DNA from: a virus
Taxonomy: Duplodnaviria > Heunggongvirae > Uroviricota > Caudoviricetes
Virus record (IMG/VR): IMGVR_UViG_2541047122_000022
Strand: one strand, 5' to 3'
Length of the DNA stretch: 6,885 bases
Positions 2,086-3,094 of this stretch are shown here, piece by piece. Positions within the stretch are counted from its first letter, which is position 1, and each line of letters starts with the position of its first letter. A program made the translations under genes and the position numbers. The notes beneath the pieces are model-generated. The model saw only the letters and a list, made by a program, of their open reading frames with translations. It made no database searches and was not told the DNA's origin.

Positions 2086-3094
2086 AAAGGTGAAAACCGG
2101 CAGTTCATCCAGTAAGTCAGTATTGACCTGGCTTGCTGATATGTGCGGTGCCGATTTGTGTGCATACCCGTCTGTATCTGCACTGGCAGAAGTAACGGAA
2201 CTGAACAAAAAGACTGTGCAGGACAGCTTACGACACCTGATGGAGATTGGGTTAATTGTTGATACCGGTGAGAGAAAAGGCAGAACAAAGCAAATTGTGG
2301 TGTACCGACTTATCGGTGTAGAAGAAAGTGTTGCCGAGCCTGAATACACCCAAAAACGGGAGTCTTTAAAGGTGGGTAAAATTGGTGCTGTTAATAAAAA
2401 CAGTACCGAAAATGGTTATGTTTCAGCACAAAACAGACCCAAAAACAGAACTCTTAGCTGCATGGAAAATAACCAAAGACACCCAAATTTTCCATCAAAG
2501 ACACCCAAAAACGGATCACGGAACCCAAAGGAACCCAAAGATCTAAACCCCACACATAACGCACGCGAGAGTGCTCCGACCAGTGAGCAGGAAGTTTTGT
2601 CGTTACAGGCAGCCCCCCCTGTATTCCTGTATGGCCTGAGCGAACCCATCGGAAAATTCCCGATGAGCGATAGCTGGTATCCGTCACGGGATTTTCGACG
2701 ACGGGCTGCGTTGTGGGGGATGGCTTTGCCGGAGACAGAATTTACACCTGCTGAACTTGCCGCCTTCCGGGACTACTGGGCAGCGGAGGGGAAAGTGTTT
2801 ACGCAGATTCAGTGGGAGCAGAAATTCGCCCGTCACGTGCAGCACGTCAGGGCACAGGTAAAACCAGTCAGCAAGGGGGTAAGCCATGCAGCACCAGGTG
2901 GCACCGCATCACGGGCAGTTCAGGAAATTCGGGCAGCACGTGAACAGTGGGAACGTGAAAACGGATTTATCAGCAACGGAAACGGCCTGGAAGCTGTGGG
3001 AACTCATGGGGGAGGTGTATTCGAACCGCTGGATCCAGAAGAACGGGGCCGCACCTTCGAAGCTCTGGATTGCACAGATTGGCGCGATGACTGA
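2057..3094 (+). CDS. Phage replication initiator (O analogue): N-terminal winged-helix/HTH DNA-binding domain, low-complexity linker, C-terminal DnaT-like domain
   Basis: Start chosen at ATG 2057 (GGGGGG just upstream) rather than the track's TTG at 1982. N-terminus MSIDALRWAKKV...LAEVTELNKKTVQDSLRHLMEIGLI is typical of phage replication-protein HTH domains. C-terminal FPMSDSWYPSRDFRRRAALWGMALPETEFTPAELAAFRDYWAAEGKVFTQIQWEQKFARHV closely resembles the C-terminal domain of primosomal protein DnaT as I remember it. Confidence 0.8.
   Translation: MSIDALRWAKKVKTGSSSSKSVLTWLADMCGADLCAYPSVSALAEVTELNKKTVQDSLRHLMEIGLIVDTGERKGRTKQIVVYRLIGVEESVAEPEYTQKRESLKVGKIGAVNKNSTENGYVSAQNRPKNRTLSCMENNQRHPNFPSKTPKNGSRNPKEPKDLNPTHNARESAPTSEQEVLSLQAAPPVFLYGLSEPIGKFPMSDSWYPSRDFRRRAALWGMALPETEFTPAELAAFRDYWAAEGKVFTQIQWEQKFARHVQHVRAQVKPVSKGVSHAAPGGTASRAVQEIRAAREQWERENGFISNGNGLEAVGTHGGGVFEPLDPEERGRTFEALDCTDWRDD
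2434..2540 (+). repeat. Iteron-like direct repeats inside the initiator linker (candidate replication origin)
   Basis: CAAAGACACCCAAA occurs at 2474-2487 and 2496-2509; a related CAGACCCAAAAACAG is at 2434-2448; GAACCCAAAG is tandemly duplicated at 2521-2530 and 2531-2540. An A-rich stretch precedes them (about 2370-2440). Confidence 0.35.

Follow-up and report, generated by a model that had tools for sequence, protein, structure and literature searches.

In lambdoid phages, the textbook expectation is that the origin of replication lies inside the gene of the replication initiator, and lambdoid genetics places origin specificity in the N-terminal part of O and the interaction with P in its C-terminal part. 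Within gene O, the lambda record annotates four iterons (CATCCCTCAAAACGAGGGAAA, ATCCCCTAAAACGAGGGAT, ATCCCTCAAATTGGGGGAT and ATCCCTCAAAACAGGGGGACAC), after which an A-rich tract follows. Here we describe a comparable array in IMG/VR record IMGVR_UViG_2541047122_000022, a stretch of 6885 bp (hereafter the window) that by sequence match is 99% identical to chromosomes of Escherichia coli O157:H7. The window is the early region of a lambdoid prophage for which ompW adjoins the integration site, and GenBank records titled 'Enterobacteria phage PPompW' match it as well. Judging from sequence comparison, positions 2343-2543 are likely to be the replication origin of this prophage's replication module, an ori-lambda-like element embedded in the coding sequence of the initiator. 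As such a location is what textbooks lead one to expect of a lambdoid phage, the arrangement itself is not surprising.

For lambda, unwinding and replication in vitro need no more than two iterons and the AT-rich region next to them, as stated in a paper with reference to earlier work (PMC7466680). According to the same paper, the N-domain and iterons of lambda, of the Shiga toxin (Stx) phages 933W/P27 and of P22 gene 18 move as one module (PMC7466680), as they do in the family of the window. The P22 origin in gene 18 has the same plan, with CGGTAAAAC iterons, followed by two copies of ACAAAAGACAATA and a C5/G5 palindrome. The likeness to ori-lambda extends further, since both arrays are located in the initiator gene right after an N-terminal DNA-binding domain (starting at O residue ~117, versus residue 98 in the window), both comprise several iterons on the same strand in which a C-rich and a G-rich arm flank an A tract, and both have a P-type helicase loader as the next gene. 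The grammar of the lambda iterons (ATCCCTCAAAACGAGGGAT; CCCTCAAATTGGGGG; the last one ...GGGGGACAC and then the A-rich tract) is shared by the motif of the window family, (A/T)TCCCAAAAACGGGA(T), whose arms are two bases shorter, and an AAATT-centred variant and a GGGACAC exit are common to both. There are differences as well. The window core is shorter (CCC-AAAAAC-GGG, ~12-16 bp, versus the 19-bp ATCCCTC-AAAAC-GAGGGAT of lambda), its iterons are irregularly spaced (26-44 nt), and they are followed by a perfect tandem 10-mer of ~50% GC, whereas lambda has a 40-bp AT-rich tract. Furthermore, the C-domain is DnaT-like and not of the lambda O type, and the N-domain is without a Phage_rep_O match, being tied to lambda O via PHROG families only.

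Winged-helix initiators and direct-repeat arrays beside an unwinding element with short repeats are also typical of theta-plasmid origins (pPS10 RepA, R6K pi, RK2 TrfA), where the iterons are non-coding, 17-22 bp long, bound in most cases by monomers and generally found together with DnaA boxes. By analogy, the window may be likened to these in having an initiator-type protein and a direct-repeat array beside an element with short repeats. It differs from them in that its array is coding and has dyad-like arms, and in that no DnaA box (TTWTNCACA) was found anywhere in the window; a plasmid-type iteron origin with DnaA boxes was rejected on the coding location and the missing box.

The same two-gene architecture as in the window is known from DopC/DopE of the Cellvibrionales and Oceanospirillales, in which an HTH_36 N-domain and a DnaT C-terminal motif are followed by a homologue of lambda P (Brezellec et al. 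2017, PMC5509034). Its authors trace the two genes back to lambdoid phages, with domestication in some Gammaproteobacteria, and report no iteron-like repeats for the chromosomal, domesticated DopC (PMC5509034). The pair in the window is prophage-borne and carries iterons, and we therefore consider its initiator a phage counterpart and not a DopC. We found no published description of this iteron, of an origin in this type of initiator, or of the motif or iterons in phiV10 or epsilon15-type phages, in a search that most subscription journals fell outside of, so that reviews or papers on phage genomes may have mentioned it before.

The iteron array within the initiator gene

A prediction made earlier from the letters of the window alone (hereafter the original prediction) proposed iteron-like repeats with an ACCCAAA motif inside a replication initiator gene. 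This heptamer has six exact matches in the window, all on the plus strand (2348, 2437, 2481, 2503, 2523 and 2533), where 1.18 are expected per window and none of 200 shuffles reached six. The six copies span 2348-2539, and scaling the expectation to these 192 bp gives ~0.03 (a simple scaling that ignores local A-richness), so that their clustering is far beyond chance. Five of them lie within 103 bp (2437-2539), in line with the five copies in about 110 bp that had been proposed, and the A-rich tract said to precede them was found as well (~2393-2436, with a GC content of 0.30-0.40 in 40-nt windows). The repeats encode residues 98-161 of the initiator, between the helix-turn-helix (HTH) match HTH_36 (residues 36-67) and the DnaT domain (residues 201-267), which is the linker position that had been assigned to them. 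Together, the counts and this position between the domains confirm the repeat observation.

The original prediction stood up wherever it could be tested, but needs three corrections. Its extent of 2370-2545 misses the sixth ACCCAAA copy, which sits at one of the two best sites, 22 bp upstream of 2370, and the start of the array was moved to 2349 accordingly. Moreover, the copies were taken as one repeat family. The repeating unit is real, and is better described as CCCAAAAACGG(G) with partial dyad symmetry, but the last two ACCCAAA copies belong to a different element downstream. The array thus comprises iterons of the 16-bp class with core CCCAAAAACGG, and a tandem 10-mer, GGAACCCAAA, in two copies (Table 1). 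A repeat finder and Tandem Repeats Finder (TRF) returned corresponding units (AATACACCCAAAAACGGGAGTCTT-like, three copies; CAAAGACACCCAAA, three copies; and the perfect tandem of two GGAACCCAAA at 2520-2539), and the repeat finder detected no other repeat cluster in the window.

Several of the less perfect positions have counterparts in relatives. The ACCGAAAACGG form, to which I3 may be compared, appears to act as an iteron copy in the arrays of phiV10 and Vibrio phage H20, and I5 corresponds to a variant, CCCAAATTTGGG / CCCAATTTTGG, that many relatives have towards the end of their arrays, and also to lambda iteron 3. The element at 2520-2543 corresponds to the tandem 9-13-mers of GAACCnnTCAnnA type, two to four in number, that are found after the last iteron across the family, and is a candidate unwinding region. 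Its GATC site is part of an AAAGAT block conserved among the closest relatives, and the AT skew of the stretch after the last iteron is 0.7-0.9.

Table 1. Positions of array elements, module junction and genes in the window
Feature	Position	Strand	Remarks
Iteron I1, CCCAAAAACGG	2349..2359	+	Perfect core; context ACACCC-AAAAAC-GGGAGT with partial dyad symmetry; codon phase 1, T-Q-K-R
Iteron position I2, GGTAAAATTGG	2375..2385	+	Decayed; aligns with CCCAAAAACGG of the closest relatives (DNA alignment: L131, L204, L207, L002)
Iteron I3, ACCGAAAATGG	2405..2415	+	Weak; three mismatches to core
Iteron I4, CCCAAAAACAG	2438..2448	+	One mismatch; right arm lost; codon phase 0, P-K-N-x
Iteron I5, CCCAAATTTTC	2482..2492	+	Variant; codon phase 2, H-P-N
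Iteron I6, CCCAAAAACGG	2504..2514	+	Perfect core; last of array; codon phase 0, P-K-N-G
Downstream element, two perfect tandem GGAACCCAAA 10-mers, then GATC site (2540-2543)	2520..2543	+	TRF, repeat finder; plus strand A-rich
Module junction	2545..2558	+	DNA homology to Rac-SA53 ydaU and TL-2011b gp12 begins at AAACCCCACACATA
Short cI-like repressor gene	839-1246	minus	
P22-Cro-like gene	1323-1550	+	Open reading frame (ORF) list, Pfam, annotation
YdaT-like gene	1534-2085	+	ORF list, Pfam, annotation
Replication initiator gene, 345 aa	2057-3094	+	ORF; Pfam, PHROG, RefSeq
Lambda-P-like helicase loader gene	3087-3548	+	Overlaps initiator stop codon
DUF1627 gene with in-frame TAG at ~3643	3583-4316		Uninterrupted part 3735-4316 = PF07789, 5e-93
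Fimbrial pseudogene, frameshifted	4446-4924		Cargo between replication and late genes
Adhesin gene paa (AcfC family)	5176-5934		Cargo between replication and late genes
hokD toxin gene	6270-6425		HOK_GEF 1.7e-21; cargo between replication and late genes

That the gene is a replication initiator with a P-like gene next to it, as had been proposed, is borne out by Pfam and PHROG. The initiator matches phrog_1032 'replication initiation protein' at 4e-91, its C-domain is the Pfam DnaT DNA-binding domain (residues 201-267, ~2657-2857; 7.9e-17, 61.2 bits, above the gathering score of 25), and RefSeq labels it 'DnaT-like ssDNA-binding domain-containing protein'. For RP-C, weak matches below threshold were all that was obtained. 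The gene directly 3' of it, as in lambda-type origins, matches Pfam Phage_lambda_P (1.4e-16, 61.2 bits against a cut-off of 26) and phrog_109 'P-like helicase loader' (3e-54), and is labeled 'replication protein P' in RefSeq. The N-domain is winged-HTH-like and covers ~2057-2335 (~residues 1-93), which leaves the array between the N- and C-domains, where lambda-type origins are found; the annotated lambda iterons occupy the same relative place in O, as the original prediction had pointed out. The Cro-like and YdaT-like genes (1323..2085, plus strand) form the upstream part of a rightward early operon that includes the initiator, and transcription of this operon traverses the array. An array within the initiator, then a P-like loader, all within a cI / cro / ydaT early operon, supports the interpretation as an origin.

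So how would such an origin work? The winged-HTH domain would bind the iterons, probably as dimers, since the sites have CCC...GGG arms around an A5 tract. The resulting nucleoprotein complex would stress the adjacent A-rich tandem-repeat element (2520-2543) and lead to its opening, upon which the DnaT-like C-terminal half and the lambda-P-like protein would recruit the DnaB helicase of the host.

Coupling of array and N-domain, and conservation at the DNA level

Searching 50,697 phage records with the initiator protein (tblastn) gave 105 matches with a modular pattern. Edwardsiella phage EPP-1 matches residues 1-163 only, Rac-SA53 YdaU and TL-2011b gp12 match only from residue 157-168 onward, and phiV10 matches both halves. 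In ten of the 11 other N-domain lineages found in this way, by protein, the N-domain is directly followed by CCC(A/G)AAAACGG in three to eight same-strand copies, namely in EPP-1, phiV10, Burkholderia Bcep176, Vibrio H20, Acinetobacter LZ35, AP22 and Ab105-2phi, Edwardsiella GF-2 and Edno5, and EBPR podovirus 1, with sources ranging from Escherichia, Edwardsiella, Burkholderia, Vibrio and Acinetobacter to a virus from EBPR sludge (LZ35/AP22 and GF-2/Edno5 being close relatives). What follows the array differs between these carriers, both in the C-domain (DnaT-like, Phg_2220_C or none recognised) and in the next gene (lambda P, DnaB-like helicase or DUF6475). Conversely, Rac-SA53 YdaU (DUF1376), TL-2011b gp12 and epsilon15 share the DnaT-like half, have other N-domains and do not contain the motif; the epsilon15 initiator has GTCCGCA/GCGGAC repeats instead. 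A profile search of viral contigs with the N-domain returned only near-identical copies.

We also scanned IMG/VR in reverse, choosing loci by two exact copies of CCCAAAAACGG spaced 6-30 nt, which gave at least 120 loci. Among the matches listed, 112 of 120 encode the N-domain on the same strand, as detected with a hidden Markov model (HMM) from the N-domain alignment, with the domain ending from 20 nt before to 142 nt ahead of the first motif copy. These represent at least 41 clusters at 85% N-domain identity, which are 30-83% identical to the domain of the window. The eight exceptions among these matches are one locus in which the domain is cut by the locus end, one lambda-O-like N-domain, five non-coding arrays and one case of unrelated low-complexity DNA. 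By eye, the initiator N-terminus at L129:2700-2830 is lambda-O-like (FTRIANEL...GREFQIVHAIIHKTFRF), with palindromic TTACCCAAAAACGGGTAA / TTACCCAAATTCGGGTAA iterons; this locus would connect lambda-O-type and HTH_36-type initiators via a common iteron core.

Throughout the family the order is the same: N-domain, iterons (one of the last of which is often a CCCAAATTTGGG-type variant), tandem 9-13-mers, C-domain. The last iteron commonly ends ...CGGGACAC(A/G)GAAYC, from where two to four tandem 9-13-mers of the GAACCnnTCAnnA type follow, and A exceeds T on the coding strand after the last iteron in 40/40 representatives. In relatives, four or more iterons on the same strand, dyad-symmetric and with an A tract in the middle, are clearly present, the symmetry of the flanks being modest over all family sites (at least 4/5 matches in 41/164 sites, compared with 12/164 in a shuffled control). 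The C5/G5 palindrome of P22 also follows the array in EPP-1 and in loci L207 and L124. A C5-6...G5 palindrome (e.g. CCCCCCTAGCCCCCAAGGGGGAGGGG) was seen after the A-rich element in relatives with a C-domain of the lambda O type and in P22 (L002:2960-3000, after the arrays of L207 and L124, and L214:2465-2490), and AAACCCC, at the module junction, is all that is left of it in the window.

At this junction, DNA homology to Rac-SA53 ydaU and TL-2011b gp12 starts five bases past the 10-mers (2545), and the breakpoints at the protein level fall at residues 157-168. Therefore, N-domain, iterons and tandem element constitute one exchange unit, and the DnaT-like half and P gene another. Co-variation of iterons and N-domain and their joint exchange are features of lambda-type origins, and from the comparisons above the array moves with the N-domain as one recombination module.

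The conservation of the array is seen in the DNA itself. A position matrix places 164 sites in 18 kb of linker windows versus 31 in the remaining 740 kb (both strands counted), a ~215-fold higher density, with no minus-strand sites in the linker windows. These 164 sites are distributed 107/36/21 over the three codon phases, and in the family the repeats often have periods of 17, 22 or 23 nt. In an alignment of five sequences (the window, EPP-1 and three closer IMG/VR relatives), pairwise identity at the third-codon positions of the N-domain is 38-48% and only 7/92 of these positions are invariant, indicating that synonymous sites are near saturation. By comparison, ACCCAAAAACGGGA (2348-2361, 14 nt) and CCCAAAAACGG (2504-2514) are invariant in 5/5 sequences and are the two longest invariant runs. 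Setting repeat conservation against synonymous variation, as had been suggested along with the original prediction, shows I1 and I6 unchanged where 85/92 third positions vary. Furthermore, the same array is present in non-coding DNA of five contigs among the matches listed.

Present-day activity and alternative explanations

Several observations weigh against the interpretation of 2343-2543 as an origin. Only two of the six positions in the window are perfect cores, with one more at a single mismatch, and those at 2375, 2405 and 2482 have decayed relative to the four to six good sites of relatives. Past the last iteron the window lacks AT-richness (GC 0.52 over 60 nt, 0.45-0.52 for the stretch), which makes it atypical, as this stretch has a lower GC content than the N-domain coding region in 36/40 representatives. 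Phab24, the sole exception among the 11 lineages found by protein, is an N-domain homologue without an array. Most of the 41 clusters were ascertained via the motif itself, so that motif statistics drawn from them are biased, though this bias does not touch the result on codon phases, the sample ascertained by protein or the comparison with EPP-1. The HTH_36 match of the N-domain (3.3e-4, 20.8 bits) is below the Pfam cut-off of 25, where aligned relatives reach 30-49 bits. A comparison of the N-domain with lambda O by hhalign is weak (probability 3%), as is the profile comparison with P22 gp18 (10%), although both alignments pair the correct regions. The initiator has no match to Pfam Phage_rep_O at E up to 0.01, for which lambda O and P22 gp18 score 123 and 130 bits, and a search of the N-domain against solved structures by sequence returned nothing below E = 0.1. 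The sole link is formed by PHROG families 678, 345 and 270, which are matched by the N-domains of both the window and lambda O. Given weak profiles but common PHROG families, we treat the window element as ori-lambda-like, that is, as a distant relative and not as a member of Phage_rep_O. To these points must be added that the ompW prophages are reported to be defective throughout, with early regions relatively well conserved (PMC8112680), and that frameshifted alleles of the initiator exist.

These alleles arose by repeat slippage in the counterpart of window positions 2474-2540. In E. coli 2013C-3264 (in the set L212:1060-1100 / L213:1010-1060) three copies of GGAACCCAAA are present (+10 nt), and in O55:H7 USDA5905 one 22-nt unit, CAAAGACACCCAAATTTTCCAT, is absent. 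Both changes frameshift the initiator, which in RefSeq is then split into an HTH protein of its own and a DnaT-like pseudogene.

A possible, if somewhat doubtful, explanation is that the element is a relic: an origin built as proposed that no longer fires. This is nested within the origin interpretation and concerns present activity only. The four weak iteron positions beside two perfect ones, the lack of an AT-rich stretch downstream, the defective state of ompW prophages, the frameshifted alleles, and the pseudogenes of the window (the DUF1627 gene with its in-frame stop and the fimbrial pseudogene) all agree with it. However, the reading frames of both initiator and P are intact in the window, and segment 2057-2560 is found at an identity of at least 95% in 908 of the 5426 complete genomes of E. 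coli, O157:H7 among them, and of at least 99% in 798 of them. The relatively good conservation of the early regions of ompW prophages (PMC8112680) points in the same direction, and the pair of iterons proximal to the unwinding region that suffice for lambda, according to the earlier work cited in PMC7466680, would have their equivalents in I5, I6 and the 10-mers, all of which are present. In a survey of O157 Sakai, to the numbered prophages of which the window was not mapped, several lambdoid prophages that combine a lambda-type loader with a repressor without peptidase domain excise spontaneously and were scored replication-positive (PMC2669165).

Alternatively, the repeats could be sites that the initiator binds for autoregulation, for copy control by handcuffing or for exclusion of related phages, with unwinding taking place elsewhere. 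Iterons do serve such roles in iteron plasmids, and the AT-rich element is weak in the window, yet the order of N-domain, iterons, A-rich tandem repeats and C-domain is family-wide and corresponds to the layout of ori-lambda and ori-P22, and neither another repeat cluster nor a DnaA box was found in the window. We consider this quite unlikely.

Far less probable still is that the repeats reflect a P-K-N-G peptide selected at the protein level in a low-complexity linker, in DNA without a function of its own: the linker is indeed of low complexity and 107/164 family sites read as P-K/E-N-G in one frame, but the other 57 lie in the other two frames (TQKR, DPKT, HPN, SQKP), repeat periods that are not multiples of three exist, synonymous positions within the cores are invariant, arrays occur in non-coding DNA, and the array follows the N-domain and not the neighbors of the linker. 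This explanation was rejected on codon phase, repeat periods, synonymous-site invariance and the non-coding occurrences, and the codon phases, protein-ascertained sample and EPP-1 comparison exclude a purely peptide-level origin of the repeats.

Neighboring genes, non-coding arrays and wider meaning

Outside the replication genes, some further features of the window were noted. In the annotation of strain SS52, the DUF1627 gene starts further upstream. A 23-nt tandem repeat (AAGCTTCTTGTGTAGAAAAACCT, 1.9 copies, 86% match) is located at 739-782, within the AT-rich spacer just beyond the 3' end of the gene for the cI-like repressor. At 297-340, a small ORF ('ECs_2282 family putative zinc-binding protein' in SS52) apparently ends early (ATGAATACAATCAAGTTTTCTTGCCCAGAATGTGGTGGCTAA).

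The five non-coding arrays (L118, L172, L178, L184 and L192; e.g. L178:6172-6400) contain ATCCCAAAAACGGGTAC in two to four copies, as well as CCCAAAATTGGG and, in inverted orientation, ACCGTTTTTGG, in DNA where every frame has stops, and are preceded by an element of two inverted GAACCTATCAATGAA copies. No gene for the N-domain was found in the stretch fetched around them, and the neighbors of the array in L178, by Pfam, are limited to an AAA ATPase with an HTH, which is uninformative. Such an array may be an origin in intergenic DNA, belonging to another element for which a similar initiator acts in trans. A more speculative and rather unlikely extension is that the iteron code CCC(A/G)AAAACGG with a GAACC-type tandem element is common to a very large family of phage initiators in Gamma- and Betaproteobacteria (30-50% N-domain identity), that these five loci are satellites or islands borrowing the initiator of a resident or helper phage, and that a co-resident phage sharing the N-domain could in the same way fire the ompW array in trans. 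If true, firing in trans within E. coli would amplify virulence cargo (paa, effector loci) in place.

With the origin interpretation as the preferred one, the array at 2343-2543 provides a candidate, testable origin for the replication module of ompW-adjacent prophages, and also explains why repeat slippage yields split initiator genes. Beyond this prophage, the 11-bp signature locates a candidate origin in many uncharacterised phages of Proteobacteria, and the 'PKNG' low-complexity linkers of phage proteins labeled 'DnaT-like' or 'primosomal' would be the protein shadow of a DNA signal. Finally, these findings agree with the proposal in the literature that DopC/DopE descend from phage genes of this kind and lost the iterons (PMC5509034).

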